Source of the DNA: a virus
UHGV virus genome: UHGV-0045429
Length of the DNA stretch: 19,258 bases
Direction: 5' to 3' (one strand)
How positions within the stretch are numbered: position 1 is the stretch's first letter; every line of letters starts with the position of its first letter. The position numbers were made by a program, and so were the translations under genes. Shown piece by piece: positions 1 to 15,334 of this stretch. The notes beneath the pieces are model-generated. The model was given only the letters and a program-made list of their open reading frames with translations, made no database searches and was not told where the DNA came from.

Positions 1-675
1 TTAGCGCAGTTCAAAAAGATAACCTTGCCCACGTACGGTGGTGATCACCTCATGCGGATATTGCGCCTGAATTTTTTTACGCAGACGTCCCATCAGGACA
101 TCAATGGTGTGACTTTCACGCAGTTCGGCATCCGGGTAGAGCTGTAACATAAGCGAATCTTTACTAACGACTTTGCCGCTATTACGGATCAGCGTTTCCA
201 TAATGGTGTATTCGAAAGCCGTAAGTTTGATCACTTCATCGTTCACGGACAGTTCGCGGCGAGAAAGGTCCACCTGAAATGGCGGAAGCGAGATTATCTG
301 CGAGGCCAGGCCACTATTGCGGCGCATCAATGCCTGCATTCTTGCAACCACTTCTTCAATGTGAAACGGTTTGGTGACGTAATCATCTGCACCGGCACTG
401 AGCACTTCCACTTTGTCCTGCCAGCCTTCACGGGCAGTTAATACCAGAATGGGCAATGAAACGTCATTACTGCGCCAGCGGCGGATCAGTGATAGTCCGT
501 CTTCATCGGGGAGCCCTAAATCGACGATCGCAATATCCGGCAGGTGTTCATTAAGAAAATAGTCTGCTTCCTTTGCATCTTCTGCATCATCCACCTGGTG
601 GCCTAAATCCTGGAGCTGAACCTTAAGGTGGTGGCGTAATAATGCATTATCCTCAACAACCAGCACGCGCATCAT
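1..675 (-). CDS. phoP: PhoP, OmpR-family two-component response regulator (complete; stop codon at positions 1-3)
   Basis: 224-aa ORF; [20 protein letters not shown]... through ...TVRGQGY matches enterobacterial PhoP as I recall it (receiver domain plus winged-helix output). Tandem ATG ATG at 675/672 with GGGAGA upstream; true start may be 672. Confidence 0.9.
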
Positions 676-745
676 TGTTTCTCCCTAAATTCATGGTACG
701 AATAGTTTAACGCTGATTATGTAGATTGAAAGCAGCGCTATGAAA
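676..745 (-). promoter_or_regulatory. phoP upstream control region, compressed to ~70 bp between the phoP start and the integrase stop
   Basis: Minus-strand reading upstream of phoP gives ...AGTTATTTAATTTCAT...ACATAATCAGCGTTAAACTATT...GGGAGAAACA ATG. This resembles the E. coli phoP promoter/PhoP-box region from memory, but the direct-repeat box looks degenerate. Confidence 0.35.
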
Positions 746-2035
746 TTAAATAACTTTTTTCATGCTCCCTCGCCCGTGGGGGCGTCCTGGGGGCAGTGCT
801 GTTGGCATCTGATTGTTCAGCATGTTGACCTGATCCTGGTTCATGTCGCCAATCCACTTGGAGTAAACCTCGTACACCATTCGCGCATCTTCATGCCCCA
901 TCTGACTCGCTATGAATGACGGGTTCGCTCCGGCCATCAACGTCCAGCAGGCATAGGTATGCCGTGACTGATAAGGATTCCTTTCGCGGATATTGGCAAG
1001 TTTAGTACCTCGCTTCCAGCCATAGGCAATCGAGTTCTTGGAAAAGTAACTGCCTTTCTTTGACGAATATGCTGTCGGTGAAAAAACGAAGCGAAGAGAT
1101 TGCTGCTCAGTTTTACCGATCTCCCGATGGTGAAATCGAATTTCTTGCTTCGGATTAGCGCCGGTGATTTCGTATTGCTCCTTCAGTGCATCCAGAGCAG
1201 GCCTAAGCAACGTTATTGTCCTTATTCCGGCATCTGTCTTAGGAGGTACAAATACTCGCTTATTCGTCAAACTTCTGGATACGTGGATTTCACCTTTTAC
1301 CAAATCAATATCTTCCCATGCCAGGGCGCACATCTCGCCCGGCCTCATCCCCGTATGTACGGCAACAATGATGATTAATGCCTGGCTACGGGGAAGGGCG
1401 GCTATCAGTGCCTGGTACTCATGAAGTAAAAGTGGGTCGGGATCATTTTTAGATAACTTGAGTCGCGACACTCCTTCATAAGGAGCATGCAATATAAACT
1501 GGCTTCGGTTTGCGAGCTTAAGCATTTCTGATAAAACTGCCATCTGTTTATTGACTGTTGAGGGCGCGCGGCCTTGCCGGGCCAGATTCGGCATTGCCGG
1601 GTTAATAATTGTACCGGTCAATAACTCCTTTCGGTAATGCAAAATATCGGCATGCTCAATATCTACCAGACGGGTATTTTCTCCGATTACACGCTGTAAC
1701 GTATTTACGACCGAAGTAAGCGATAGCAGCGTTGCACCAGATACCTCTAAGGCTTTGGTGTCTGTAAAAAAATCACTCAACTCTTTAAACGTGGTGATTT
1801 TTTTGGTTGTGATGAACTTCTTAAGCGCTTTGGATTCCGGGAAGCGTTCCGCATAGTCGAACTTACCGAGCTGTATTTCGCTTGTGATGAGTGCGCGAAG
1901 ATTTCCAGCTTTTTTGATGTTGCTGCTGTTCACCGTCCAACCGCGAAGGACTTCGCGGCAACGTTTGCCGCGATAGGTAAATGTAATCCGTATTTTCCCA
2001 TTATGCAGCTCAACGCCGGTTGGAAAGTCCATCAT
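746..2035 (-). CDS. int: Phage tyrosine integrase with N-terminal arm-binding domain
   Basis: 429-aa ORF; C-terminal catalytic signature ...RHTYACW...GHEDARMVYEVYSKW (R/H-x-x-R/Tyr). Start overlaps the stop of the upstream xis-like ORF. Confidence 0.9.
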   Translation of the reverse strand: MMDFPTGVELHNGKIRITFTYRGKRCREVLRGWTVNSSNIKKAGNLRALITSEIQLGKFDYAERFPESKALKKFITTKKITTFKELSDFFTDTKALEVSGATLLSLTSVVNTLQRVIGENTRLVDIEHADILHYRKELLTGTIINPAMPNLARQGRAPSTVNKQMAVLSEMLKLANRSQFILHAPYEGVSRLKLSKNDPDPLLLHEYQALIAALPRSQALIIIVAVHTGMRPGEMCALAWEDIDLVKGEIHVSRSLTNKRVFVPPKTDAGIRTITLLRPALDALKEQYEITGANPKQEIRFHHREIGKTEQQSLRFVFSPTAYSSKKGSYFSKNSIAYGWKRGTKLANIRERNPYQSRHTYACWTLMAGANPSFIASQMGHEDARMVYEVYSKWIGDMNQDQVNMLNNQMPTALPPGRPHGRGSMKKVI

Positions 2036-2247
2036 GCTTCCTGTACTAATTGGTTAATCTTTGGATAGTTGTACCAAAGCAGACCTTTAGAATTGCCAGT
2101 TTCCCCGAGAGCTGTCAGATGTTTGAAATGCACGCCTTCGATCCACAAATTCAACCGATAACTTTTAATTTGTCTTTCAGACAAGCCGGTCTTTTCTGTT
2201 AGTCGCGCTTCAACCATCCACTCTTCGCTGAAAATGAGTTGCGACAT
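2032..2247 (-). CDS. xis: Excisionase-like small DNA-binding protein
   Basis: Start chosen at MSQLIFSEEWMVEARLTEKTGLSERQIKSY... with a GGAG RBS 7 nt upstream. 4-nt overlap with the int start. Resembles the small prophage excisionase family; the 92-aa track ORF is probably over-extended at the N-terminus. Confidence 0.7.
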   Translation of the reverse strand: MSQLIFSEEWMVEARLTEKTGLSERQIKSYRLNLWIEGVHFKHLTALGETGNSKGLLWYNYPKINQLVQEA

Positions 2248-2306
2248 ACATAACTCCGATGCCGCCAGCCACAACAGTACATGCTGCGGTTGGCGAATAT
2301 TGATAA

Positions 2307-2534
2307 TCAAAAATCAGTAGTTGGTTTTGTCTTACGTTTTTGGCGCCGTTTTTTCTTCGGCTTGATGCTTGGTGGCATAACGAGCCGACGCGCTGGTGGC
2401 AGACTAAAAACATGCTCACTGATCTGTCTGCGTTCTCTCATTTTCCATACATGCCATGCCGTCCAGTCACACCCATCATCACAGATGTGCTGCGAGCGGA
2501 TCAGCGCTTCATCGCCGGTTAAATTCTCTGTCAC
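2307..2534 (-). CDS. Small hypothetical protein with Cys/His cluster and strongly basic C-terminus (KPKKKRRQKRKTKP)
   Basis: 75-aa ORF with a GTG start overlapping the stop of the upstream large ORF (GTGA coupling); sits between the RecE-like gene and xis. No family recognised. Confidence 0.35.
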   Translation of the reverse strand: MTENLTGDEALIRSQHICDDGCDWTAWHVWKMRERRQISEHVFSLPPARRLVMPPSIKPKKKRRQKRKTKPTTDF

Positions 2535-4399
2535 TGCTCCGCCTCCGCACTTATAACCCCAGCGGCCAGCGCAGCTGCCATGTGTGGCAATTCGTCAAAA
2601 TCACCTCGATATGCCGGGTTAGCGCACATCCCCTGCAGAGCCGCTAGCGTCAGCTGCTGGCGGTAGGTCAGGGTGGTAGACAGTTCACCATTGGTGACGT
2701 CGCTACCCGGTGAGGAAGCAGGCAATTCTGGTTTTTTCTTCGGTTTGGCTGTGACAACTGCTGGAGCTATCACTATCGGTTTTGGTGGCTCTGGTCGGCG
2801 ACATTCCACGATCGCATCGAGGGCGATTTTCTGACGCAAGGCAGCATCATCAGACCAGCCATCAAGAATTGTCGTTGCGACATCGTGAATTTCGTCATCG
2901 TTGAAATTAGGGGACAGACAAAATTCAGTGGTGGCGATATCGATGATCAGCAGAGGAAGAACGTCAGCGATAATATGACCGGTGCATGCCACAACGCCTT
3001 CCGCTTCTTCCTTACCCATAACGTCAGTACGTCCCGAAAGCAGGTCGTTCAGTGCGTGGGCAATCTCAATTTCATGATCATCCAGAAGTGGGCGACCGTC
3101 TTCCTGTTCGGTCACTTCCGTTTTTTCGCCCTCATTTGAGGCGCTATTGGCAAATGCTGCATCCAGTTCCCTGTTGAGCTCCGCAGCGCGAGACGGGCAG
3201 ACTGCCGGTATTTCAGTTCCGTTCTGTAATGTCTGTTCGGTTTGATCATTGAGGACCACCTCATTATTTTTTTGTGGCAGTGGGGCGGATGTACGGCCGC
3301 ATGCGATATCAACAATCAGTGGATCCGGATTTGCGTGATTTGACTCAGTCAGGTTTTTATTGATGTATTCGCGCAGTTTTACCGGATCGCGGTAGATATC
3401 CTCCGGAGAGGATTTAATTAGGGCAATAATTGCTGCGCGGGAAAAATCCAGAATACCGGGCGTGCGACGTAACTGTTTCCACCATGCAGTAAAGCGCTCA
3501 TCGGTTGCGGTTTCTTCCATTTTTTTGGCACGCTCATGAACGGCATGCGGCAGTTCGTAGATGTCGAAATCCATAGCAATACCCAGAATACCTATGCAGA
3601 CCTCGCGGCGCAGGGTTGCCAGCGTATGAGGTAGAACGCGATCGGTTGGGTTACCGCCGCCGAGCGTACAGCCTGATTCGGTGTGTGTGTCTTCACTGGT
3701 TTCAGGTTCGTCAGTTTTAAGTTTTACTGGCTCGCGTTTATCGGGCGGGGTCTCAGCCCATTGGGTAAACAGGTTTTTATAGTCTGGCCATTTAGCATTG
3801 TCGCGCGCCCTCTGACGCACCCAGGCCAGGCATTCGGTCTGTTTTTCAGGAAGCATGGCAAGAATGCGGGGTTCTTTGGCAAGACCCTCTGCCTGTTCGC
3901 GTAAAGGGCTAAATTCATCATCATTCAGCATGTCGATTAACTGGCCATACTGAGAAGGGGTGATTTCATCAATGACACCAAACACCGCGAGGCAGTATGA
4001 GCGGGCCAGCACATCCAGTTCTTTCACCGGTTTCATTTTTTCTTCTGTCGCGTCAGCATTGAGTTGTTCATTACCGCCAGCAAGCTCTGGCTCAACTATG
4101 ACGCGCTCTGGTTCACCTTTCTCCGCATTCCAGACAATTTCACCAGTGAAGAGGTCGGTATAGAACTGTCCCTCAACAGTGCAGAACATTCCTTCTTCTG
4201 TTTCCCAGACCTTGGGGGCGAAATAATCATCAGCATAATCTGGCGCGAACTGTATAAAGTCAGCATGCAGTAATGTCTTTGCAATTGTTTTATTTTTCGC
4301 TTGTTTAAAAGCAACATAAACCGGAAGTGTACTGTCTTTTTCAAGTGCACTTTTTTTCGGTTCGAATCTCCCGCCAAATTTTTTTAATCCAGTTGTCAT
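2531..4399 (-). CDS. Large acidic early-left protein resembling the N-terminal region of RecE (exonuclease VIII); no C-terminal nuclease domain recognisable
   Basis: Start taken at MTTGLKKFGG (ATG 4399, GAGG RBS 6 nt upstream). Segments GGGNPTDR...MDFDIYELPHAVHERAKKMEE and LREYINKNLTESNHANPDPLIVDIACGRTSAPLPQ match what I recall of the E. coli Rac RecE N-terminal region. No recT-like ORF follows. Confidence 0.6.
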   Translation of the reverse strand: MTTGLKKFGGRFEPKKSALEKDSTLPVYVAFKQAKNKTIAKTLLHADFIQFAPDYADDYFAPKVWETEEGMFCTVEGQFYTDLFTGEIVWNAEKGEPERVIVEPELAGGNEQLNADATEEKMKPVKELDVLARSYCLAVFGVIDEITPSQYGQLIDMLNDDEFSPLREQAEGLAKEPRILAMLPEKQTECLAWVRQRARDNAKWPDYKNLFTQWAETPPDKREPVKLKTDEPETSEDTHTESGCTLGGGNPTDRVLPHTLATLRREVCIGILGIAMDFDIYELPHAVHERAKKMEETATDERFTAWWKQLRRTPGILDFSRAAIIALIKSSPEDIYRDPVKLREYINKNLTESNHANPDPLIVDIACGRTSAPLPQKNNEVVLNDQTEQTLQNGTEIPAVCPSRAAELNRELDAAFANSASNEGEKTEVTEQEDGRPLLDDHEIEIAHALNDLLSGRTDVMGKEEAEGVVACTGHIIADVLPLLIIDIATTEFCLSPNFNDDEIHDVATTILDGWSDDAALRQKIALDAIVECRRPEPPKPIVIAPAVVTAKPKKKPELPASSPGSDVTNGELSTTLTYRQQLTLAALQGMCANPAYRGDFDELPHMAAALAAGVISAEAEQ

Positions 4400-4406
4400 A
4401 ATAACC

Positions 4407-4607
4407 TCAATAATGTTTATGTGAATGGCGTGCATTGCTTCTGCTTAAATTACAGCGCCGTGGTTCATGAATTTGTTTGTAGGAGATAGCATGCTCAAGG
4501 CTACAGAAATAAGCAGTCACTACTCTCTTATGAATTCTTTTTGTTGATTTATACATGGAATCATCAGAACTCCATTTTTTACAATACGGACAGCACTCAA
4601 GTGTCAC
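4407..4607 (-). CDS. Small Cys-rich ORF (possible zinc-binding protein); weakly supported
   Basis: 66-aa ORF with GTG start preceded by GGGAGGG; translation MTLECCPYCKKW... Position is analogous to the small ydaE/racC-type genes upstream of recE in Rac, but there is no sequence-level confirmation. Confidence 0.3.
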   Translation of the reverse strand: MTLECCPYCKKWSSDDSMYKSTKRIHKRVVTAYFCSLEHAISYKQIHEPRRCNLSRSNARHSHKHY

Positions 4608-4732
4608 TTACCCTCCCTGCATAGCTGGCTATGACAGGGCCATCATTGATGGATATAGTTAGCCCTGCCAGTTAAGGCATAAATAAAAACTCTCTTAATT
4701 GTTTGAAGTTATTGAAGGGGGTAAATAAAAGT

Positions 4733-4918
4733 TCAGCGTAAAAACTCGCTAATATTAACCCTCTGGTCGTTAACTATTTTGGTCATTACTTTGATGAAAC
4801 ACATATCCAGCACCGCCTCATCTTTATATTTTTGAACGCCGGTTATATCAGCCACAGCTTTTTTATATTCAGCTTCAGCTGTACGCTGGGCAATATCTTC
4901 GCTGGTAAATTTAACCAT
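4733..4918 (-). CDS. Hypothetical small early-left protein (61 aa)
   Basis: ATG at 4918 (MVKFTSEDIAQRTAEAEYKK...); 8-nt overlap with the upstream ORF suggests translational coupling. The track ORF from 4990 is probably an over-extension. Confidence 0.5.
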   Translation of the reverse strand: MVKFTSEDIAQRTAEAEYKKAVADITGVQKYKDEAVLDMCFIKVMTKIVNDQRVNISEFLR

Positions 4919-5105
4919 TGGCACGCACCATCCTGAGTAAAGATTCCGTGTGATCGAGAGCTGCCTTCTGTTGTTCGTACAGTGCCTCAAGTTCAGCTGT
5001 AAGGCGGTCGCGAAACGCAGGAACGCTTAACTGGTAAATAAAATTACTTACTGAGCTTTCCACATCAGGATCCCCGTCCGGTATAACTGGCTGTGAATTT
5101 TTCAT
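4911..5105 (-). CDS. Hypothetical small early-left protein (64 aa)
   Basis: ATG at 5105 (MKNSQPVIPDGDPD...) with a GGAGGG RBS immediately upstream; first ORF of the leftward operon. Confidence 0.55.
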   Translation of the reverse strand: MKNSQPVIPDGDPDVESSVSNFIYQLSVPAFRDRLTAELEALYEQQKAALDHTESLLRMVRANG

Positions 5106-5135
5106 AAACCCTCCGGTAAAAAGGTGCCCATCGTG

Positions 5136-5155
5136 GGAGATGGGCAAATACCACG
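5136..5155 (-). terminator. Terminator-like hairpin just upstream of the first early-left gene
   Basis: On the minus-strand transcript: GCCCATC-TCCCAC-GATGGGC followed by ACCTTTTTA (7-bp stem plus U-rich tail) immediately 5' of the RBS of the 64-aa ORF. Confidence 0.35.
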
Positions 5156-5182
5156 CGGCACACACTGCAATTAATCACATCT

Positions 5183-5246
5183 GCAAGCGCACTCCGCCTG
5201 TTTCACACCTGTCACCCATAACTGGTAAGTGAAGGAGTGCGCTTGC
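5183..5246. repeat. 13-bp perfect inverted repeat with 38-nt spacer inside the ORF-poor leader
   Basis: GCAAGCGCACTCC at 5183-5195 and its reverse complement GGAGTGCGCTTGC at 5234-5246; arms extend by a further 5 bp with a bulge. Confidence 0.5.
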
Positions 5247-5940
5247 ATGTTGTGTTCGCGGGGTCTACTTCCCTCCTGACACGGTTCTTTCCCCGCGTCA
5301 TCGTGTGTTCATTCGGTACATGAAACCCATTTGCCGGGATTCCACCGACTCCCATCTGTTTTTAAAGCCACTCAGATATCGTCTGGGCTTGCTCGTCTTT
5401 TCGAGCCGTCAGCGTTCTACTTCCCGCCGTCACTGCCGTGTTTACACAGTTGAACGTCTGCCGCTGTTCTCGGTGCTGGTACCGCCACTGTCCAGGACAT
5501 TTATAAGGGCCGTCTCCAAGTGGTAACTCTTCCAGTCCCGGTAAGAACCCTGCGAGATGCTTAGCGTGACTGGCTGTTATTCCCTGAAAAAGGCTGGCGG
5601 TTACCGGAAATACACGGGAAAACACCGGGCCGCCAAAACAGGGGGCTACTTGTTATTGCTTTGGCCTGCTTTTATCCACATCAGGCGCGGTGGTAGGTAT
5701 CTTCGGGCGGGGGCCAGTGACCAGCTGGCATCCCTACGGTACTTTTCACCGACAACCGCGGGTTAGACGGTTCCGTTTCGTCGGATAGAGCTGTCGATGC
5801 TGGTAGTCACTCCAGCCCGTAACCCCTCCCGAAGACACCTGTTTAGCGTTAAAACTTAAAATCTGTTTCCCCTTTATCGCCAGGGTAAGCGGAACAGTTT
5901 GATTCTGAGTAATCACTGCGTGTGGTTACTTGATGGAATA

Positions 5941-5996
5941 AACTTAGGTTAACTTAAGTTTTCAATCAAGATTTATTTTGTAGAAAAACCTAAGTT
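5941..5996. promoter_or_regulatory. Left operator-like region (OL analogue): inverted AACTTAGGTT / AACCTAAGTT half-sites downstream of the repressor gene
   Basis: AACTTAGGTT at 5941-5950 and its exact reverse complement AACCTAAGTT at 5987-5996. The 10-mer AAAACCTAAG (5985-5994) recurs exactly at 6521-6530 in the repressor/cro intergenic region. Confidence 0.45.
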
Positions 5997-6046
5997 TATG
6001 GGTGTAAAAACATAACTCATTGATTTTATGAGTTGAATATTTTGGT

Positions 6047-6463
6047 TTATTTTACTCGGGTTTTTCTTTTTCTCTTCTCTGCTTCTAGCAGTTCTTGCAG
6101 GCGGATGCTGTTGTTTTCGTTACGAGCGCGTAACTCTTCGAGGAAGCCGATCTGATCTGACTCGGGAAGTGAATCAAAGAGTTCTAATAACTCTAATTGA
6201 ATATCAGTTAATTCTCTTTGCTCTTCTAATGGTACCGGCGCGCCCGGAATCTGGGCCTCATCACCAAAAAGAAGCCATGCTGGCGCGCACTGCAGGCCTT
6301 TGCTAAGGGCGAACAACCTCTTTCCCGCCGGTTGAGTTTCATCGCGTTCCCACTGGGAAATAGTTACGTGTGCGACCTTTACCAGTTTGCCCAAGGCAGC
6401 CTGGGAAAGGTTTAGCTCTTTGCGTCGCCTTAAAAGACGAGTACCGAAGGTTTCTTTATCCAT
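6047..6463 (-). CDS. DicA/RacR-type prophage repressor (XRE-family HTH, no S24 peptidase domain)
   Basis: 138-aa ORF; N-terminal HTH (LNLSQAALGKLVKVAHVTISQWERDETQP), LFALSKGLQCAPAWLLFGDE and LELLELFDSLPESDQ closely parallel E. coli DicA as I recall it. No recognisable RBS before the ATG. Confidence 0.85.
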   Translation of the reverse strand: MDKETFGTRLLRRRKELNLSQAALGKLVKVAHVTISQWERDETQPAGKRLFALSKGLQCAPAWLLFGDEAQIPGAPVPLEEQRELTDIQLELLELFDSLPESDQIGFLEELRARNENNSIRLQELLEAEKRKRKTRVK

Positions 6464-6484
6464 ATTAGGTAATTCTAAATTCTC

Positions 6485-6531
6485 TTGACTTAAATTTCCC
6501 TACGATCTAGTTTCCTTAGGAAAACCTAAGG
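6485..6531 (+). promoter_or_regulatory. Right operator/promoter region (OR analogue) between divergent repressor and cro-like genes
   Basis: TTGACT at 6485-6490; perfect palindrome CCTTAGG-AAAA-CCTAAGG at 6514-6531, overlapping the AAGGAG RBS of the DicC-like gene. Confidence 0.5.
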
Positions 6532-6541
6532 AGATTTAATC

Positions 6542-6766
6542 GTGCTTAAAAAAGACGCAGTTATTTTTTTTGGAAGCAAATCAAAATTGGCAAAGGCTGC
6601 TGGTGTTGCTGCTTCATCAGTTTCTGTATGGGGCGACCTCGTGCCAGAGAAAAATGCGATGAGACTACAAATCGCTTCTGATGGTGCCCTGCGATATGAC
6701 CCCGAGGTCTATGACAAACATGCTAAAGCAAAACGGTCAGGAGAATTGAATGATGAAAATCAATGA
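6542..6766 (+). CDS. DicC/YdaS-like Cro-type regulator
   Basis: 74-aa ORF, GTG start with AAGGAG 8 nt upstream; MLKKDAVIFFGSKSKLAKAAG...GDLVPE...MRLQ...YDPEVYD closely matches E. coli DicC from memory; divergent from the repressor. Confidence 0.8.
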   Translation: MLKKDAVIFFGSKSKLAKAAGVAASSVSVWGDLVPEKNAMRLQIASDGALRYDPEVYDKHAKAKRSGELNDENQ

Positions 6767-7229
6767 GATCAAGTTACTGGCTATCGAGCTTGAAGAGTGG
6801 GCGATGAAGGATGGCAGGAAAGGGGGCTGGAAAAAGATTGTCCCACTGATTACCTCGCATCACTACGGTGATTTGCTGGATAGCCTGGCAGATATCGTGG
6901 ACCCGTCAGAGTATGTGCGCCGCCTGCATAACAACACGCAGATCATCCAGCGGGCATTTCGAAATGACACGCCGAACTATCGTGGTCAGGCAGCTGCGCT
7001 TGCGCCAGCAATCAGGGCTGCGATGGATGCAGAGCTGGCTGGTCAGCATGACTTACATAACCTGGTGGCCATTGCTAACCGCGAGTGCATCGAGGCGACC
7101 AGTGCGGTGCTGACTGGTAAGCCAATGCAGGTAATCCGCAAAGAAACGTCAGAGGCAATTCAGGCACTGGCCGATCTCATCCCCGGCGTCAGCATCCAGT
7201 TTAACCATATTGGTCCGCGCGCGGCGTAA
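6750..7229 (+). CDS. YdaT-like protein (third gene of the racR-ydaS-ydaT type immunity cluster)
   Basis: 159-aa ORF overlapping the DicC-like stop by 17 nt; AGGAG RBS; central NTQIIQRAFRNDTP...LAPAIRAAMD segment resembles the YdaT family as I recall it. Confidence 0.6.
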   Translation: MMKINEIKLLAIELEEWAMKDGRKGGWKKIVPLITSHHYGDLLDSLADIVDPSEYVRRLHNNTQIIQRAFRNDTPNYRGQAAALAPAIRAAMDAELAGQHDLHNLVAIANRECIEATSAVLTGKPMQVIRKETSEAIQALADLIPGVSIQFNHIGPRAA

Positions 7230-7241
7230 CAGGAGGCTCCC

Positions 7242-7484
7242 ATGCTTGCCCAGGAATTAGTAGACCGCATGAAAAATGCGATGAAGCACAAAGTACCGGC
7301 GGAGACAGTCGATCGCAGCGCTGAACTGATTCCGGGGATGAAATACCGCAACGAACGCGGACGCATGGTGACGGTAATGAGAGTTTCTCATCTTCGGGTT
7401 ATGTACCGATACGAAGGTTATCAGGACATCTGCGAGACAGGCCGGAGAGAGTTTGATTTGAAATTTAAGAAGGTGGAATTGTGA
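7242..7484 (+). CDS. Hypothetical phage protein (80 aa)
   Basis: ATG at 7242 with AGGAGG 5 nt upstream; tightly packed between the YdaT-like and HNH genes. Confidence 0.6.
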   Translation: MLAQELVDRMKNAMKHKVPAETVDRSAELIPGMKYRNERGRMVTVMRVSHLRVMYRYEGYQDICETGRREFDLKFKKVEL

Positions 7485-7486
7485 GT

Positions 7487-7840
7487 ATGAATTGCTGTGG
7501 CTGCCACAATCCTTTGGATGAGGACGAAATCTATAAACTTGCAGAGCGGTGCGGAATTTCGATCTGTGACCGTTGCGCGGGTAAGGTCGAACGCAGCTAT
7601 AACGAATGGCACGGTGGTCCTGGATATTTCCCCAAACCCCCTAAACACCCCCGCAAAAATATCTCACCGGGAGTGAGATTAAAAATTTATCGAAGGGATA
7701 AATACCGCTGTAAATATTGCGGCACCAGTGATGATCTCACCATTGATCATATTCAGCCTGTCTCTAAAGGCGGCGGAAATGAAGATGAAAATCTCCAGAC
7801 CTTATGTCGTGCCTGTAACCGCAGGAAGGGGGCGTCATGA
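7487..7840 (+). CDS. HNH endonuclease
   Basis: Cys-rich N-terminus plus H-N-H core ...DLTIDHIQPVSKGGGNEDENLQTLCRACNRRKG; ATG 7487 preferred over GTG 7481 because AGGTGGA lies 9 nt upstream. Confidence 0.8.
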   Translation: MNCCGCHNPLDEDEIYKLAERCGISICDRCAGKVERSYNEWHGGPGYFPKPPKHPRKNISPGVRLKIYRRDKYRCKYCGTSDDLTIDHIQPVSKGGGNEDENLQTLCRACNRRKGAS

Positions 7841-8772
7841 GCTCACTAATCAAGTTACTCGATCGCCCAGTGGCGTATCAACCAGCATTTGCACAGCTCA
7901 GGGCGGGAAAAGTGAAATCAGGCCCGTCGGCTGCTGTCCTGCTTTCCCAGTTCGTCTACTGGCATAACCGCATGGGCGGTGAGTGGATGTACAAGACGCG
8001 TGAAGACATAAAAAAAGAGACGGGGTTAAGCCGTGATGAGCAGGAAACAGCGAGAAAAAGACTGGTTGCTCTGGGGGTACTACAGGAAGAACTACGAGGG
8101 GTTCCTGCGACTGTACATTACAAAATTAATACCGGGCGTCTGGAGGTACTTTTGCTGGCTCCAGACCAGGCAGAATCACAGATGGGTGCAACGCCGCCAA
8201 CTAGAAAGCGGCAATCCCGCCAACTGGATGGCGGCAACACACCCAACAAGATGGCGGTAACCCCGCCAACAAGCAGGGGGGAATACCGCCAGCAAGATGG
8301 TGGTGATCCCGCCAACTTTCCTACAGGAGATTACACAGAGAGTACTCAGGAGATCACTCAAAGGGCCGGAGATGAATTTTCTGTGGATAACTTTTCTGAC
8401 GAGGACGTGAAATTTTCAGAGTGGTTCTTTGCTCGGGTCGTCGAGATGCATGAGCGAGCTGCTGAGTTTGACGGAACCATGTCACGCCCCGATGAACCTG
8501 ACTGGACTGAATGGGTGGGCGAGGTTCGCCTGCTGCGGGAAGAGCAGGGGTGCGATCACACGCAGATGCGCCGCATGGTTGAGCGCATTCAGGGGGATCC
8601 GTTCTGGTGCCCAAGGGTAAAAACCGCGCACGCCCTGCGGGACAAGTGGGCTGACCTGGTGGTGAGACTGTGCCCAGTGAGCTTGGCTGATCCGCCGCGA
8701 CAATCCACTTTCGACGATGAATATTACAAAAACGATTCTGAGTCCGCTGCGAAAGCAGGTTTCAGGATCTGA
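7837..8772 (+). CDS. Phage replication initiator (lambda O-like replisome organiser) with origin iterons inside the coding sequence
   Basis: 311-aa ORF, ATGA overlap with the HNH stop; N-terminal winged-helix-like segment (LLSQFVYWHNRMGGEWMYKTREDIKKETGLSRDEQETARKRLVALGVL); tandem DNA repeats in the middle of the gene encode the repetitive linker. Confidence 0.65.
   Translation: MSSLIKLLDRPVAYQPAFAQLRAGKVKSGPSAAVLLSQFVYWHNRMGGEWMYKTREDIKKETGLSRDEQETARKRLVALGVLQEELRGVPATVHYKINTGRLEVLLLAPDQAESQMGATPPTRKRQSRQLDGGNTPNKMAVTPPTSRGEYRQQDGGDPANFPTGDYTESTQEITQRAGDEFSVDNFSDEDVKFSEWFFARVVEMHERAAEFDGTMSRPDEPDWTEWVGEVRLLREEQGCDHTQMRRMVERIQGDPFWCPRVKTAHALRDKWADLVVRLCPVSLADPPRQSTFDDEYYKNDSESAAKAGFRI
8190..8320. 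repeat. Iteron-like direct repeats (putative replication origin)
   Basis: CCCGCCAAC at 8216-8224, 8262-8270 and 8308-8316 (plus CCGCCAAC at 8194-8201), each preceded by GATGG(C/T)GG at 8227, 8250 and 8295; unit about 22-24 bp; CCGCCA/TGGCGG gives internal dyad symmetry. Confidence 0.6.
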
Positions 8773-8800
8773 GAGAACTGAATTTAACCTGGAGAATTTT

Positions 8801-9463
8801 ATGGAAACCATTTTAGACGTACTGAAAGCGATGGAAAAAGCGACTGCCCGTGAAATTGCGGCGCGCATGAAAATTGAGCCGGCGGCGGTGATCGGGATGC
8901 TGCGTGAGCACGAAGAGCGTAATGAGGCTGTTCAGGCTAACGGGTACTGGAAAGTTGCCACCGGGGAAGTTAAATCACAGCCAAAAGCGATCAGTTCTTT
9001 CAGCAAAGCGCCGGTAAGTGTATCAGTCAGCGACGTCATCGCATTACTGGCGGAACATGGGCCACAGACATCCCTTGAGCTGGCAACACTGGCAGGTATT
9101 GAGTCAAAACGTGTGGCGCCAATGCTGACTCACCACATGACAAAAGGGCGGATCATCCGCGAAAAAGTAGGCAGCAAGTTTGTTTATTCGGTGCCGGCCA
9201 CTGCGTCAGTGAAAAACAAAAGCTCTGCACCACGGGAACCGGAAACATCAACACCACTGGTACCAGAAAAATCTGTCACTGAAATTGTTGAGGAAATCCC
9301 CGCTTTCGTCAGCCGTCCTGATGATCTGCTGATCCCAACGGTACGCGGTATCTCAAGTGAAATTCGGCGCACAAAAGCGAAGCTGGCTAACCTGGAAAAA
9401 CTTCGTGAAGCCGTTCGCAGCATTCGCAAACACGGCGCGCTGATGCAGGAGCTGGCGCAATGA
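8801..9463 (+). CDS. Hypothetical protein with two tandem winged-helix-like segments
   Basis: Start taken at METILDVLKAMEK (GGAG RBS); two similar blocks (ILDVLKAMEKATAREIAARMKIEPAAVIGML... and VIALLAEHGPQTSLELATLAGIESKRVAPML...). No Walker motif, so not a DnaC/P-type helicase loader. Confidence 0.6.
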   Translation: METILDVLKAMEKATAREIAARMKIEPAAVIGMLREHEERNEAVQANGYWKVATGEVKSQPKAISSFSKAPVSVSVSDVIALLAEHGPQTSLELATLAGIESKRVAPMLTHHMTKGRIIREKVGSKFVYSVPATASVKNKSSAPREPETSTPLVPEKSVTEIVEEIPAFVSRPDDLLIPTVRGISSEIRRTKAKLANLEKLREAVRSIRKHGALMQELAQ

Positions 9464-9684
9464 AACAGTCTGAGTTACCGCGCTGTCCGGCCTGCGGAAA
9501 TATGCCCGAATACGCGCTAAAGCCAAACCATATGGGATGGGTATGGGGTGGATTGAAATGTCCGTATGACCATTACCGCGTGAATTTGGATGGTCCAGCC
9601 GGTAGCCGCGTGCAGGCAGAAAAAAAGCTGGCGCCACAGTGGATTGAACTGGTCGAGAAAGCTAATCAGGAGAAATCAGCGTGA
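9460..9684 (+). CDS. Small zinc-ribbon protein, possibly Lar-type restriction alleviation family
   Basis: 74-aa ORF; AGGAG RBS; LPRCPACGN...GLKCPYDHY (C-x2-C ... C-x3-H) pattern. Family call is tentative. Confidence 0.5.
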   Translation: MKQSELPRCPACGNMPEYALKPNHMGWVWGGLKCPYDHYRVNLDGPAGSRVQAEKKLAPQWIELVEKANQEKSA

Positions 9685-10043
9685 AACCAACCTACGAAGA
9701 ACTGACAGTACAGCTCGCTAACGCCGAGAGCAAGTGCAGGGAGCTGGTGGTGGAATGTTCGACAATCAAAGCCATGAGCGATTGCCTGTCTGAAGAGCTG
9801 CGTGGTTATGAATCTGATGGGGCGTTTGAAGGACCGAAGATGCATCTACTGTGGTGGAAAGCAGAAACTCCCGCGACCGACGCTTTCCTGGCTGAAGTGC
9901 GGGCGCAGGTCCACAAGGAAGGTGCTCACTTTGTAGCAAATAGAATGCTGGCCGCCACTCTTTTTGTTTTCGTTATCCTCAATGCACCCGCATGTAACCC
10001 GCTTCGGCGGGTTAGCTTCTTCTATCTGAGATTTTGTTGCTAA
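9681..10043 (+). CDS. Hypothetical protein (N-terminal coiled-coil-like, hydrophobic C-terminus)
   Basis: GTG start with AGGAG 9 nt upstream, overlapping the previous stop. The C-terminal ~15 codons read through hairpin 9996-10013, so the 3' end may be a fusion artefact. Confidence 0.45.
   Translation: MKPTYEELTVQLANAESKCRELVVECSTIKAMSDCLSEELRGYESDGAFEGPKMHLLWWKAETPATDAFLAEVRAQVHKEGAHFVANRMLAATLFVFVILNAPACNPLRRVSFFYLRFCC
9996..10013 (+). terminator. Hairpin AACCCGC-TTCG-GCGGGTT (copy a of a repeated terminator-type stem-loop); weak U-tract
   Basis: Perfect 7-bp stem with tetraloop; identical 18-mer recurs at 17742-17759. Confidence 0.4.
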
Positions 10044-10205
10044 ACGCAGTCTTACCGTTCTATCTGCAGGCATTGAGTAACTAAGTTCAAATGTTACATT
10101 GATCACGTTTTTTAACGTCTCAAAACCTCATTGGTATTGAGTTCCTTTGTGGTAATGATTTTGTTGGATAAAATAGCCAATATCTCAAGGAGTAGGTAAC
10201 CACTA

Positions 10206-10559
10206 ATGATCAATGATGTTAAAAATGCAAAAATTGAAGAATATTTCACCGTTCTAAAAGAAAAGAGCAGACCTCCAAGCAAAGGTGGGAACACAAAGGC
10301 TCTGCATGCCCACTACATTAAAATTGATGGAATGTTATACAGTTTTCTCGCGTTCGGTTCTAAGCAATGGATTTTCAAAACCGACCGAGTATCATTTAAG
10401 TTCGAAATGAACGGCGAATACAGGAATATTCTCCGGGAATCCATTAGCACTATTGATAGCAATGGGGAAGTAGTAATCAGAGGGTTGCGTGGTTTTAGCA
10501 AGAAGATAAGGACTGCTGATACGCGTTTACCAGCATCCAGAAGGGAATGCAGGGATTGA
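10206..10559 (+). CDS. Hypothetical protein (117 aa) in AT-rich cargo cassette
   Basis: ATG at 10206 with AAGGAG upstream; AT-rich codon usage unlike the flanking phage core (by eye); no family recognised. Confidence 0.6.
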   Translation: MINDVKNAKIEEYFTVLKEKSRPPSKGGNTKALHAHYIKIDGMLYSFLAFGSKQWIFKTDRVSFKFEMNGEYRNILRESISTIDSNGEVVIRGLRGFSKKIRTADTRLPASRRECRD

Positions 10560-10712
10560 ATATGTAATTTGTGTCGAATTTGCAATCATTAGCTAGCAAA
10601 TTGAATAAGTAACATAATAATTTTCATGAATAATATGAATAAAAAACCAGGATGACATACTAGGTGTTTCCGGTATCTTATCTATATATTATTTACGTTC
10701 AAGTGACTTTAA

Positions 10713-10874
10713 ATGACTGGCCAGCAACTTACTGAGCTCGAAATCGCTTATGGTGGGGAAGCTTACTCAGATAATGAAATTGATGCGAAAACAGTAGCTA
10801 AATCACTAAAGGATGTTGAACATTCAATGTCAGTGCATTCAAACGCCCTTCAAAGCGACGCTGATAAGTCTTAA
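10713..10874 (+). CDS. Small acidic ORF (53 aa) below the ORF-track threshold
   Basis: ATG 10713 to TAA 10872-10874 (MTGQQLTELEIAYGGEAYSDNEIDAKTVAKSLKDVEHSMSVHSNALQSDADKS), ending directly before terminator b; weak RBS. Confidence 0.3.
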   Translation: MTGQQLTELEIAYGGEAYSDNEIDAKTVAKSLKDVEHSMSVHSNALQSDADKS

Positions 10875-10889
10875 AGTTCGTGTACTGCT

Positions 10890-10912
10890 AACCCGCTACG
10901 GCGGGTTTTTTT
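10890..10912 (+). terminator. Rho-independent terminator (copy b): AACCCGC-TACG-GCGGGTT plus T7
   Basis: Perfect 7-bp GC-rich stem, tetraloop, run of seven T. Confidence 0.75.
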
Positions 10913-10968
10913 ATGCCCCTTACCAATAAATAATTAACCTGAATTATTGTAAATTATTGAGGTTTGTT

Positions 10969-11607
10969 ATGGGTGGCATTTTCGATGAATCATGGTCTGA
11001 GCAATTTACTCAACGCGTTGAGGCTTTGCGTAAACTGGATGATCAGTCCGTTACTCAACCGCTTTTCAGAGAAAAAGCGGATCTGATTTTTACTCAAATG
11101 GCTGACCGTGTTCGTTCGCGTACGCGACAGCAGCTCGGAGAAATCGACGTTAGCGGGATAACATTTGATTACGCAATCCGCTATTACGTTAATCACGACA
11201 CTGGTGATCCGGTTCTGGATCACCTTGTGTCCAGGGTAGGGCCATTCTGTGACCAGATGAAGATCAGCACGGAGGCGTACGGCACAGCGGCGTTCTGCTG
11301 CGCGCTCATGATGTTGAAAGGCGAGTTGCGTATAGCGTATGCATTTTTCAGCATGCTGATGCGCCCGCTCGTTTCTGCGTACAGGTATAACACCGACGCG
11401 AAACGACGTGGCTCTGCTGGTGGGCGCCCGACAAATCCACTTAAAAACGAGGCACTGGAACTGGCGCGGGTATTTACAAAATCCTATCCTGATTCAACGA
11501 TGGTGGCTGTTGTTAACGCCGTCATTTCTGACCTTGAATCTCACTACGTTGGCACTCCGTCAGCACGCACAATAAAGCGCTGGATTCAGCAGGACCGGAA
11601 AAAATAA
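10969..11607 (+). CDS. Hypothetical protein with C-terminal resolvase-type HTH-like segment (putative DNA-binding regulator)
   Basis: ATG 10969 (GAGG RBS; the track start at 10957 is a TTG). C-terminal GGRPTNPLKNEALELARVF...TPSARTIKRWIQQ resembles the GRP-led HTH of serine recombinases, but no recombinase catalytic domain is present. Confidence 0.55.
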   Translation: MGGIFDESWSEQFTQRVEALRKLDDQSVTQPLFREKADLIFTQMADRVRSRTRQQLGEIDVSGITFDYAIRYYVNHDTGDPVLDHLVSRVGPFCDQMKISTEAYGTAAFCCALMMLKGELRIAYAFFSMLMRPLVSAYRYNTDAKRRGSAGGRPTNPLKNEALELARVFTKSYPDSTMVAVVNAVISDLESHYVGTPSARTIKRWIQQDRKK

Positions 11608-11614
11608 CCCCTCC

Positions 11615-11660
11615 GGACAAAACCTTCTTTTGTCGGCATAACCTGGTTTTGTCCGTTTTA
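11615..11660 (+). terminator. Terminator-like hairpin: GGACAAAACC ... GGTTTTGTCC followed by GTTTTATC
   Basis: 10-bp perfect inverted repeat (11615-11624 / 11645-11654) downstream of the 212-aa ORF. Confidence 0.5.
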
Positions 11661-11700
11661 TCATCAAAAAAAATACGTAGAATCCGTCTCACACTTTTTG

Positions 11701-11745
11701 TTGAGACATCTCCCGGATGAGGTGATACTGTTTATATATACAGTA
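11701..11745 (+). promoter_or_regulatory. SOS-regulated promoter: near-consensus LexA box TACTGTTTATATATACAGTA overlapping the -10 element
   Basis: CTG-N10-CAG at 11728-11743; 19/20 match to the E. coli LexA consensus TACTGTATATATATACAGTA; TTGAGA (-35, 11701-11706) and GATACT (-10, 11724-11729) with 17-bp spacing. Confidence 0.65.
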
Positions 11746-11773
11746 TTTGGTCTCTGAATTATCGGGAGATAAT

Positions 11774-11974
11774 ATGCAAATAACTAATGAATTAGTGCCT
11801 GGTGCCTCGGCCCACACAGGACCAGTTTTAATTCAACTGGTGGCGGGTGAAGTGCAAGGTGGCTTTATTTTAAGAGATGATGAATTTGTCACATCTATCT
11901 CCACACTAAATGAAACAAGAATTATGGCCGGATTAGACCCCGCGCCTTTTACCCGATCCCTAACTGATTTATAA
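11774..11974 (+). CDS. Small protein (66 aa) under the LexA box; candidate SOS-induced antirepressor
   Basis: ATG 11774 with GGGAGA RBS, 28 nt downstream of the LexA box; MQITNELVPGASAHTGPVLIQLVAGEVQGGF... No family recognised; function inferred from context only. Confidence 0.5.
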   Translation: MQITNELVPGASAHTGPVLIQLVAGEVQGGFILRDDEFVTSISTLNETRIMAGLDPAPFTRSLTDL

Positions 11975-12036
11975 TAATCACTCGCGAGCGTGAACAACTC
12001 GCAGCTGAGTAACACTGCGCCAACCGGAAATAAACG

Positions 12037-12351
12037 ATGGCGCGTAAAAAATCGTATATAACCAAAGCCGAGCAACAGCACCTCGATCGCGTAGCGTCGT
12101 TGGGTTGTTGTGTCTGCAAAAATCTTGGTTACCCCGACTCTCCAGCGGGGATTCATCATATCCGAACCGGGCAGGGTGCAAGCCAGCGCTCCAGCCATTT
12201 CGAAACTCTGCCGTTATGCGCTGCCCACCACCAGACGGGTGGCTATGGCATTGCTTATCACGCTGGCCCTGAGATATGGGCGAAAAAATACGGCACCGAA
12301 ACTGAGCTATTAATTCAGGTTACGTCAGATTTAAACGGGGACTGGTCATGA
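12037..12351 (+). CDS. YbcO-like nin-region protein (putative nuclease, Cys/His-rich)
   Basis: 104-aa ORF directly upstream of and overlapping rusA, as ybcO-rusA in DLP12; CCVCKN...HHIR...PLCAAHH metal-binding-like pattern. Confidence 0.6.
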   Translation: MARKKSYITKAEQQHLDRVASLGCCVCKNLGYPDSPAGIHHIRTGQGASQRSSHFETLPLCAAHHQTGGYGIAYHAGPEIWAKKYGTETELLIQVTSDLNGDWS

Positions 12352-12707
12352 CCCGTTACCCCGTAACTCCAATCGGCAAACCCCGAATGACAAGAGCCGA
12401 CAAATGGAAGCAGCGCCCGCCGGTGCTCCGTTATCGTGTTTTCTGCGACGAGGTGCGCCTGCATGAAATCGTTCTGCCTGAAAGCGGCGCCCACGTTATT
12501 TTTGTTCTGCCAATGCCAGCGAGCTGGAGCCAGAAAAAACGCGCCAGCATGAACGGACAGCCTCACCAGCAAAAACCGGATATAGACAACCTCACCAAAT
12601 CCCTCATGGATGCCATTTACGACGACGACGCCCACATTTGGGACGTCCGTGCATCAAAAATCTGGGGTGATGAAGGCGCGATTATTATTCAGGAGGGCAA
12701 GGCGTGA
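12348..12707 (+). CDS. rusA: RusA-family Holliday junction resolvase
   Basis: 119-aa ORF; ...KPDIDNLTKSLMDAIYDDDAHIWD... matches the RusA acidic catalytic region as I recall it. Confidence 0.8.
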   Translation: MTRYPVTPIGKPRMTRADKWKQRPPVLRYRVFCDEVRLHEIVLPESGAHVIFVLPMPASWSQKKRASMNGQPHQQKPDIDNLTKSLMDAIYDDDAHIWDVRASKIWGDEGAIIIQEGKA

Positions 12708-14245
12708 TGCCCTTAACATACGGATCCGTATGCAGCGGAATTGAGGCAGCGAGTGTGGCGTGGGAGGTATTGGGCTGGCGGCCGTCATGGTTTTCTCAGT
12801 TCGATCCGGAACACAATTACAAAAACGGTCCTGATTTCCCGTCTGCGGTGCTGGCGCATCACTGGCCGCACGTAAAAAACCTTGGCGATATGACAAAAAT
12901 CGCCGCAGCAATCCGGCTCGGAGAAATTGAAGCGCCCGACGTTCTGGTAGGTGGTACTCCCTGCCAGGCATTCAGCATTGCTGGACTGCGTAATGGCCTG
13001 ACGGATTCACGCGGCCAACTAACCCTCGCTTTTGTAGAACTGGTAAACGCAATTGATGAAAAACGAAGAGAACAGGGAAAACCACCCGTCATTGTCGTCT
13101 GGGAAAATGTCCCCGGAGTATTCAGCAGCAGAGATAACGCTTTCGGATGTTTTCTTGCAGGGCTTGCCGGCGAAAGCCGTGAACTGGAATCACCAGGGCG
13201 AAAATGGACAAACGCTGGTTATGTGCTGGGACCAGAAAGGGCTGTCTGCTGGCGAGTGCTCGACGCTCAATTTTTCGGAGTGGCCCAACGACGCCGCCGT
13301 GTGTTTGTTATCGCAAGCGCTAGAGGGGATATCGATCCCGCAAAAATACTTTTTGAGTCCGAAGGCATGCGCCGGGATACTCCGCCGCGCAGAGAAACGG
13401 GGGAGATCGTTGCCGCCCTTATTGCAAACGGCGTTGGAGTGTGTGGCGCAGACGATAATCAGGGGCAGGCAGGGCACCTGATTGCCATGGCGCACGGACA
13501 GGCAGGGGCAGAAATTAAAACGGATGATTCCGCGCCTACGCTTACCTGTAACCATGAAGCGCCTATTGTTTTTAGCTGTAATGGACACGCATCGTTTACG
13601 CCGGGAGTCAGTGCTCTGCGAACTAAATCAGGCGCAGACCATGAAACGCTGGCTGTTCATGGTACGCAAGATCCCGACACTTTAAAGAACCTGGCACATA
13701 CGCTGGGTCGAAACCATGGGCAAGAGAATGCCGTTGCCTACTGTCTCCAGCATGCACAAATTAACCGGGCAGATAACGCTGGCCCACAGGGTAAAGGATG
13801 GCAAGAAGAATGCAGATTCACTCTGGATTCTCGTTCTTGTGCTGATGCAGTCGCTTATGCCTTCAAGGCCGGGCAGGGCGCAAAAGCGGGTGGCATTGGC
13901 TGGGCAGAGGAACAATCCCCGACACTGACGGCCGCCAGCAGTGGATCGAATTTATCCCCTTCAGTGGTGAAAAATATGGCCGTTCGCCGCCTTACTCCTG
14001 TCGAATGTGAACGCCTGCAGGGCTTCCCCGATAACCACACTTTAATCCCCCGTGATAAGCGTAAGCAGATTACTGCTGATGAGTACGCATACGCGCGCCA
14101 CCACAACCCAAAAATAACCGCAGAGGAAGCCTACAGGCTGGCGAAGGATGGTCCGCGCTATAAGGCCATTGGTAACAGCATGGCCGTACCGGTTATGCGC
14201 TGGATAGGAAGGCGAATCTCTAACGCTCTGGAGCAGACAATATGA
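12707..14245 (+). CDS. Orphan DNA (cytosine-5) methyltransferase
   Basis: Motif I-like YGSVCSGIEAA, motif IV GGTPCQAFSIAG, motif VI VVWENVPG, QRRRRVF, C-terminal RRLTPVECERLQGFPDNHT and GNSMAVPV; large variable region between. AGGAGGG RBS; start overlaps the rusA stop. No adjacent restriction endonuclease ORF. Confidence 0.9.
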   Translation: MPLTYGSVCSGIEAASVAWEVLGWRPSWFSQFDPEHNYKNGPDFPSAVLAHHWPHVKNLGDMTKIAAAIRLGEIEAPDVLVGGTPCQAFSIAGLRNGLTDSRGQLTLAFVELVNAIDEKRREQGKPPVIVVWENVPGVFSSRDNAFGCFLAGLAGESRELESPGRKWTNAGYVLGPERAVCWRVLDAQFFGVAQRRRRVFVIASARGDIDPAKILFESEGMRRDTPPRRETGEIVAALIANGVGVCGADDNQGQAGHLIAMAHGQAGAEIKTDDSAPTLTCNHEAPIVFSCNGHASFTPGVSALRTKSGADHETLAVHGTQDPDTLKNLAHTLGRNHGQENAVAYCLQHAQINRADNAGPQGKGWQEECRFTLDSRSCADAVAYAFKAGQGAKAGGIGWAEEQSPTLTAASSGSNLSPSVVKNMAVRRLTPVECERLQGFPDNHTLIPRDKRKQITADEYAYARHHNPKITAEEAYRLAKDGPRYKAIGNSMAVPVMRWIGRRISNALEQTI

Positions 14246-14877: not shown

Positions 14878-15037
14878 TTTTTGAAATAGAAAATAAGCCG
14901 AATTAATTCAATAAAAATATATAATTACAAATGCCAACATGATTGCATTTGTGTTGGTTATAGTAATTGATTTGTTATATGAAAATGAAATGCTTATAAC
15001 AATCCGCGAAGAATAAAATTAATATATCGAGGACATA

Positions 15038-15334
15038 ATGAAAGAACTATCAGCAAAAGATTTACTACATAAATATTCAAGCCCGCTTGATTCAGTAAGC
15101 CTATTTAACGCAATGCATCTCGCTGGTTTAATTGAAGTAAAGGAATATATTTCCTCGACAGGAAGTGGTGAGATTAAGACCTATCGATCGCTAACTGAGA
15201 GCGGTTTGAAGTATGGGATCAATAAAAGATCTAGTTATAGTGATGCAACTGACTTAAAGTTTTTTCCTTCAAACTTCCATGAATTGTTGGTATTGGTATC
15301 AAAGGAGATTTTGAAGCATTCAGAGATGCTTTAA
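15038..15334 (+). CDS. Hypothetical protein (98 aa) in AT-rich cargo
   Basis: ATG 15038 with GAGGA RBS; preceded by a 160-bp AT-rich promoter-like region directly after the Q-like gene. Confidence 0.5.
   Translation: MKELSAKDLLHKYSSPLDSVSLFNAMHLAGLIEVKEYISSTGSGEIKTYRSLTESGLKYGINKRSSYSDATDLKFFPSNFHELLVLVSKEILKHSEML

Follow-up and report, generated by a model that had tools for sequence, protein, structure and literature searches.

A lambdoid element with a Rac IntR-like integrase at the phoPQ promoter and an attachment site in its -10/start-site region

The 19,258-nucleotide viral genome sequence UHGV-0045429 (hereafter the window, meaning this whole stretch at its full length) begins with the gene for the response regulator PhoP and carries, directly upstream of it, a gene for a tyrosine integrase. 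PhoPQ controls Mg2+ homeostasis, resistance to antimicrobial peptides and polymyxin, and virulence, and its positive autoregulation is conserved across enterobacteria. The comparisons described here show that a lambdoid prophage, or an island derived from one, has integrated site-specifically through its Rac IntR-like integrase at an attachment site (attB) within the phoPQ promoter. The recombination has split this promoter, so that phoP keeps the -10 hexamer, the leader and the ribosome-binding site (RBS; 676..722) and everything upstream is phage DNA. As in related elements, the junction on the purB side would hold the PhoP box and the 12-nt spacer together with a second -10/start-site copy, facing into the distal part of the prophage. 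The structural part of this explanation (insertion, attachment core and displaced box) is almost certain for the prophage family and is held with high confidence for the window; the explanation as a whole, structural insertion plus predicted regulatory consequences, is probable; and the functional consequences, which are deduced from sequence, have about an even chance of being correct.

The breakpoint in the purB-phoP interval

The phoP neighbourhoods of 80 species-representative genomes were compared, and purB, phoP and integrase homologues were located in each. purB lies directly upstream of phoP (approximately 120–250 bp) with a canonical PhoP box, defined by the consensus (T/G)GTTTA-N5-(T/G)GTTTA, in 57 of the 80 representatives, and approximately six more have a near-canonical box in an equally short interval. 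This native order was seen in Escherichia, Salmonella, Citrobacter, Enterobacter, Leclercia, Lelliottia, Kosakonia and others, and is annotated in E. coli as roxA-phoQ-phoP-purB-hflD. Island-free relatives within Citrobacter read GGTTTATTAAATGTTTA, then the spacer TCCCCAC(T/A)GCCA, then CATAAT, with the box in direct orientation 12 nt upstream of the -10 hexamer, which is the layout of the ‘architecture I’ phoP promoter of Salmonella (PMC3335776).

The PhoP translation of the window is 99% identical to that of Citrobacter youngae, and its phoP DNA is 82% identical to the annotated E. coli gene. The closest relatives, C. youngae (L001) and Citrobacter sp. L003, are island-free, and alignment anchored on the phoP ATG shows that the window equals both of them from the ATG to position 722 (47 nt, 676..722) and is unrelated to them above it. 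The breakpoint coincides with the upstream border of the -10 hexamer. Identity to the lysogen C. braakii L008 also flips there, from 86.7% on the host side to 97.4% on the phage (int-xis) side. The alignment to island-free relatives that an earlier note on this DNA had proposed therefore puts the breakpoint at 722 and the native PhoP box out of place; with native order in most representatives and closest relatives free of the island, the arrangement is an insertion and not the ancestral state.

The earlier note had the integrase ending approximately 70 bp from the phoP ATG, with a -10-like ACATAAT and an RBS retained in between. These coordinates hold: the gap (676..745) is 70 bp with both genes on the minus strand, ACATAAT is found at 722..716 (the CATAAT hexamer at 721..716) and the RBS at 686..681, and the TAA stop of int (748..746) lies 24 bp from the core. 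The -10 and the leader downstream are identical to those of C. youngae, so that the -10/start-site feature of an architecture I promoter is present in the window. What had been described as compression of the promoter is instead a cut at the -10 hexamer, with the native PhoP box found, in related elements, at the far end. The architecture I box 12 nt upstream of the -10, present in island-free relatives and at purB-side junctions, is absent upstream of the window phoP; the best same-strand match to it within 225 bp (676..900) scores 9/12 and lies inside int. The phage arm (723..770) shows no homology to the 29 nt that precede the -10 in the native promoter, and the replacement offers just a -35-like hexamer, TTCATA at 744..739, 17 bp from CATAAT.

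Variant loci were also seen in the survey. Pseudescherichia vulneris (L077, 7518..9998) has a 2.5-kb insert between purB and phoP that shows no integrase similarity, box or core, and C. amalonaticus S646 (L028, 9747..9998) has approximately 125 bp more than usual between the phoP ATG and its PhoP box and core.

Attachment core, integrase and occurrence of the element

The attachment core, ACATAATCAGCGTTA(A/G)ACT(A/G), is 15–20 bp long, and its copy at 722..703 is the single match in the window at up to 3 mismatches. The observation in the earlier note that no attachment-site repeat could be seen by eye thus stands for the window, because the other core copy lies beyond the window end; as a statement about the element it does not, the core being real and its second copy outside. 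IMG/VR was scanned for the PhoP box, the spacer and CATAATCAG, and 11 loci were found in which purB is followed by a terminator, an intact PhoP box, the 12-nt spacer, ACATAATCAGCGTTA(A/G)ACT(A/G) and unrelated phage sequence. Both element ends occur on single contigs: ACATAATCAGCGTTA (15 bp) forms a direct repeat in L173 (13.3 kb), whose junction matches Enterobacter loci, and ACATAATCAGCGTTAAACTA (20 bp) is found at both element ends in L118 plus L179 (37.9 kb), whose junction matches the Leclercia locus L048. The linkage of the two ends rests on L173 and on L118 plus L179; in the IMG/VR contigs, trimming has removed the far arm of Citrobacter-type elements. Enterobacter-type elements carry ...GCGTTAGACTG as the continuation of the core copy next to purB and ...GCGTTAAACTA as that of the copy next to phoP; this side-specific polymorphism (GCGTTAG... 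on the purB side vs GCGTTAA... on the phoP side) places the crossover inside ACATAATCAGCGTTA, that is, within the -10 hexamer/start-site region. No matches were obtained in tRNA and Rfam scans of the window, and the site is therefore not of the tRNA type.

No core was found as a far end of this island either in the window or in the next 10 kb, which are available from a sequence (L084) that is 100% identical to window 8320..19258 and continues beyond it. Contig CABJAD010000001.1 of assembly GCA_902363475.1 equals this part of the window at 100% identity. A search for homologues with the next gene along the island returned only a 1.9-kb representative contig. By analogy with related elements, the far end of this island would be expected to read purB, terminator, GGTTTAnnnAATGTTTA, 12 nt, ACATAATCAGCGTTA and phage arm. 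In the loci L170–L180, motifs of the form G(G/A)ACA(A/T)T recur approximately 10 bp apart (e.g. GGACATTATCGGACAATAA, GACAATTGCGGGCAATATG), 75–100 nt downstream of the purB-side core and followed by a conserved CGCCCCAAATCATGCCCC; these are candidate arm-type integrase binding sites.

The integrase combines an N-terminal arm-type DNA-binding domain (PF12167 Arm-DNA-bind_2, 6e-26, residues 5–69) with a C-terminal catalytic domain (PF00589 Phage_integrase, 1.1e-19, residues 205–392), and its segments HTGMRPGE, SRHTYA and GHEDARMVYEVY, judged by eye, may correspond to the catalytic R...R/H...H...Y residues. The excisionase gene that overlaps the int start (PF06806 DUF1233, 5e-21, residues 26–90) was listed as an open reading frame at 2032..2310 from a TTG; the ATG at 2247 is preceded by GGAG and, judged by eye, is the likelier start. 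Among isolated phages the closest integrases by protein are those of PHB10 (52%) and of the Rac IntR type (50%), followed by the wrbA type of Stx phages (44%), and megablast of the int region against isolated phages gave no matches. A search for free attP, with left arm, core and right arm as the pattern, returned two IMG/VR and three metagenome matches, all of which are an old remnant followed by a new prophage and none an excised phage.

Integrases 83–100% identical to that of the window were found in 80 IMG/VR prophage contigs. Approximately 50 of these continue past the int stop, and in all of them phoP follows at an identical spacing, with arm, core and leader arranged alike. An integrase or a remnant of one stands at phoP in 15 of the 80 species representatives: a full-length integrase in five (C. 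werkmanii, C. braakii, C. portucalensis, where it is frameshifted, Lelliottia wanjuensis and Enterobacter genomosp. O) and decayed remnants of 0.9–4.8 kb in ten. The ~45-bp phage arm beside the core is conserved in the decayed remnants, from which the rest of int is lost. None of 5,426 E. coli genomes, all carrying phoP, has int joined to phoP, and the E. coli core sequence differs (CATAATCGCGTTACACT). Tandem loci were also observed (L181, L182, L183, L184 and L185), in which purB is followed by an old integrase remnant with its arm, the core and the right arm of a new prophage. New prophages stand beside old remnants at the same core, and the site has therefore been re-used. The identical junction in approximately 50 independent hosts and the new insertions at remnant cores lend indirect support to a putative recombination activity of the integrase.

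A remnant of approximately 0.9 kb between purB and phoP is common to the representatives of E. cloacae, E. quasihormaechei, E. hormaechei and E. intestinihominis (L063, L023, L020 and L019; ~9050..10000). It consists of a 3' fragment of int with the phage arm and an opposite-strand open reading frame of 130 aa that has no Pfam match, and no canonical PhoP box lies between purB and phoP in these four representatives. The shared remnant would imply an old insertion common to them. The locus labelled E. hormaechei B56 (L020, 7680..9047) encodes a PurB that is 99.8% identical to E. coli PurB, compared with ~93% for other Enterobacter PurB proteins, and the terminator, remnant and phoP downstream of it are Enterobacter-like; this could reflect import by recombination or a problem of assembly or label. 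Another genome labelled E. hormaechei, B17-3 (L026), looks entirely E. coli-like at the purB-phoP locus.

The integration module resembles Rac IntR/XisR of E. coli, whose attB lies in ttcA, and lambda-type modules in the pairing of a PF12167 + PF00589 integrase with a DUF1233 excisionase that overlaps the int start, in the transcription of int toward the adjacent att junction and, in related elements, in a short core repeated directly at both ends. It differs from Rac in sharing only ~50% amino acid identity and in having its attB in the -10/start-site region of the phoPQ promoter. As in phage 21 and e14 (icd) and in tRNA-integrating phages, attB lies in a constrained, conserved sequence and element sequence replaces the displaced part of the target; unlike those elements, which carry a homologous restoring copy, the displaced part here is a regulatory half-promoter containing the activator site. 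No paper linking prophage integration to purB/phoP was found in the literature, and the attB is, as far as we found, undescribed. What is new is the target, an attB in the -10/start site of the activator-dependent phoPQ promoter; the mechanism is ordinary lambda/Rac-type integration.

Predicted consequences for phoPQ and distal phage genes

With its box displaced, phoPQ would lose direct PhoP autoregulation from its own promoter. Its transcription would come from a hybrid promoter, made of the phage TTCATA, a 17-bp spacer and the native CATAAT with an A/T-rich tract upstream, and/or from int read-through. The combination TTCATA-17-CATAAT matches the consensus at 9/12 positions and is the only sigma-70-like site in 500..2600. 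No terminator-like site was found between the co-oriented int and phoP; read-through from the island into phoPQ, as the earlier note had envisaged, is therefore structurally possible. The conservation of the arm in remnants fits a role as the de facto half of a phoP promoter, without proving one. A constitutive phoP promoter, P2, probably lies upstream of the PhoP box and would then be displaced too.

At the purB-side junction, the box, the spacer, the -10 and ~8–14 nt beyond it are kept. This is the whole of the 58-bp fragment, from 52 nt upstream to 5 nt downstream of the start site, that is enough for Mg2+-regulated PhoP-dependent transcription (PMC3335776). The displaced and complete PhoP-dependent promoter would drive transcription responsive to PhoP and low Mg into distal phage genes. 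In six of ten far ends the first co-oriented gene encodes SRAP (YedK-like) and begins ~330–370 nt downstream, followed by umuDC-like genes on the other strand, and no convincing terminator was found between the purB-side junction promoter and the SRAP gene. A conserved hairpin, ACTTTCAGTCTG...CTGGAGGT, lies directly before the SRAP start codon (L170 2879..2915; L174 12396..12423 on the minus strand; also L170 1591..1618). It holds the Shine-Dalgarno sequence GGAGG in its 3' half and was flagged by a terminator scan, but is followed by the ATG and not by a T-run; it may be a translational control element.

A two-way promoter swap is tentatively suggested by these features. phoPQ would be uncoupled from autoregulation and placed under a constitutive phage half-promoter with int read-through, the PhoP/Mg promoter would be captured for distal phage genes (SRAP, next to umuDC), and phage history could have rewired PhoPQ feedback in the E. 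cloacae/E. hormaechei lineages. If this is true, rewired feedback could account for part of the variation between lineages in PhoPQ-dependent traits, polymyxin heteroresistance among them. Independently of that reading, a mobile element here takes the autoregulatory site cleanly and reproducibly from phoP, and the intact PhoP-dependent promoter passes to phage genes. The event is recurrent, and its carriers include representatives of the clinically important genera Enterobacter and Citrobacter. Lysogens and cured strains would form natural near-isogenic pairs for asking what PhoPQ autoregulation is for, and lysogeny would offer a testable route to altered polymyxin or antimicrobial-peptide responses.

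Several points weigh against the main explanation, an insertion with the predicted regulatory consequences. Where the displaced PhoP box lies in this genome is deduced from related elements, the far end lying more than 10 kb past the window, and neither a free attP nor an isolated phage with this integrase was recovered. The hybrid promoter is just a 9/12 match, and its -35 is weaker (TTCATG) in Enterobacter-type elements. The arm could be conserved for its int codons, the stop codon and recombination sites, and not for a role as promoter. Deletion of the PhoP box in Salmonella abolishes growth at low Mg2+ (PMC2650801), yet the prophages are common, and some compensation must exist. Their abundance despite this defect suggests that the arm compensates.

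Y. pestis offers a partial parallel, in that y1795 separates phoP from the PhoP box, and autoregulation persists there through transcripts that read on from the PhoP-dependent promoter upstream (Perez et al. 2009, PMC2650801). Both loci have DNA between the autoregulatory box and phoP and no box immediately upstream of phoP; unlike the single intervening gene of Y. pestis, the DNA here is a prophage of more than 29 kb, much of it transcribed in the opposite direction.

An insertion that is regulatorily neutral, with output buffered by PhoQ bifunctionality, basal transcription sufficient and proximity to phoP a by-product of a conserved attB, is unlikely, since the activator site is physically removed and the box is required for low-Mg growth of Salmonella (PMC2650801). 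Such neutrality would agree with a core that is conserved as a promoter, hence a dependable attB, and with the persistence of prophages and remnants in many lineages.

Prophages that act as regulatory switches are represented by Listeria phi10403S in comK and Streptococcus pyogenes SpyCIM1 in the mutS-mutL operon. The element at phoP shares with these its position in the control region of a host gene or operon and the return of the native state on precise excision; it differs in that its target is the promoter of a two-component master regulator and not coding sequence, and in that there is no sign of regulated non-lytic excision. A reversible switch (‘active lysogeny’) of the phi10403S kind, in which such excision restores the autoregulated promoter, would suit the intact int and xis beside the junction, the regeneration of attB, i.e. 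the native promoter, by precise excision, and the re-use of the site by new phages. It is nevertheless very improbable: nothing points to a link between excision and host physiology, many copies have decayed to remnants, and the island in the window apparently has no late genes, carries cargo and may be immobile.

No more probable is a repair of the promoter by the phage, in which AGTTAT-N5-TTCATA would be a working degenerate PhoP box that keeps autoregulation, as in the replacement of tRNA or icd 3' ends. All elements and remnants conserve the block ATTTAATTTCAT, which shares TTATT.AAT.T with the native box, and lysogens are common although box loss is deleterious in Salmonella; the conservation of ATTTAATTTCAT is explained, however, by int C-terminal codons, the stop codon and the attachment arm. 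The earlier note was right that a degenerate PhoP-box-like repeat is present (755..739), but it belongs to phage arm DNA with the int stop and is not a decayed native box. It matches the PhoP consensus at 6/12 positions, a chance-level score that 11.6% of all 17-mers in the window equal or exceed, and it stands 17 nt from the -10, compared with 12 nt for the native box. Even an authentic, perfect phoP box drove little expression once it was shifted to 17 nt, PhoP requiring the correct face of the helix (Zwir et al., PMC3335776). The repeat was rejected as a PhoP site on these two grounds, the chance-level match and the inactive spacing. Finally, the idea that an integrase beside phoP is ancestral and the purB-phoP adjacency derived, for which nothing was found beyond remnants in some whole species representatives, is refuted by the spread of the native order across genera, the direct repeats that flank the element, the breakpoint at 722 and the discordance of host and phage identity across the junction.

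The best PhoP-box match in the whole window (11/12) is TGTTTATTGACTGTTGA at 1545..1561 on the plus strand, inside int and in reverse orientation relative to phoP. This segment encodes the conserved integrase peptide PSTVNKQ and is kept in E. cloacae-group remnants, approximately 175 bp upstream of phoP (e.g. L063 9824, L023 9824).

Content of the island

The features of the window are collected in Table 1. The region 2531..14877 is a lambdoid early region in which immunity, replication and antitermination modules are present. No lysis or virion structural genes were found in the window between 14.9 and 19.3 kb or in the next 10 kb (L084), where the sequence continues with genes for an SDR protein, a DLH hydrolase, a LysR regulator, an AaeAB-like efflux system and an AraC regulator. 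The island is longer than 29 kb. A defective or composite element may explain this, or late genes could follow beyond that point.

Table 1. Features of the window (positions in nucleotides; strand as + or -)
Feature	Positions	Strand	Basis or remark
phoP coding sequence (response regulator PhoP, 224 aa)	1..675	-	window starts at the phoP stop codon
Native phoP 5' leader, with RBS AGGGAG at 686..681	676..702	-	identical in island-free C. youngae L001 and Citrobacter sp. L003
Attachment core ACATAATCAGCGTTAAACTA, phoP-side (int-proximal) copy	703..722	-	includes the native -10 CATAAT and start-site region of the PhoP-activated phoP promoter
Phage attachment arm, int stop to core	723..745	-	unlike native sequence; conserved in all integrase-bearing relatives and decayed remnants
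‘PhoP-box-like’ repeat AGTTATTTAATTTCATA (AGTTAT-ttaat-TTCATA)	739..755	-	phage DNA, overlaps the int stop codon
Tyrosine integrase, 429 aa, Rac IntR-like	746..2035	-	PF12167 + PF00589
Excisionase	2032..2247	-	PF06806 DUF1233; overlaps int start
Exonuclease-like, 634 aa	2531..4435	-	Pfam/PHROGs
cI-like repressor	6047..6463	-	Pfam/PHROGs
cro-like	6542..6766	+	Pfam/PHROGs
cII-like	6750..7229	+	Pfam/PHROGs
HNH	7481..7840	+	Pfam/PHROGs
O-like replication initiator	7837..8772	+	Pfam/PHROGs
RusA	12348..12707	+	Pfam/PHROGs
Dcm methylase	12704..14245	+	Pfam/PHROGs
Q-like antiterminator	14242..14877	+	Pfam/PHROGs
Cargo in place of expected lysis/structural genes	15038..19258		unannotated open reading frames, ending in alpha/beta hydrolase
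Alpha/beta hydrolase	18320..19258	-	end of window cargo

The Dcm (C5-cytosine) methylase is unusually long (513 aa) and matches Pfam DNA_methylase in two stretches; its DNA is 78% identical to methylase genes of Enterobacter and Aeromonas phages. Two genes, of 254 aa and 133 aa, separate Q from the hydrolase cargo (16281..17446, plus strand); they overlap by one base, have no Pfam match and may form an accessory or defence pair. The cargo cluster (window 15038..19258 with L084 1..10000) comprises two alpha/beta hydrolases, the SDR protein, LysR, the AaeAB-like efflux system and AraC. The same cluster was found in other genomes (L082, L083 and L085) beside a different lambdoid early region and a TonB-dependent receptor, and in L083 an ars operon and additional phage genes (DinI, Rem and RusA) flank it.

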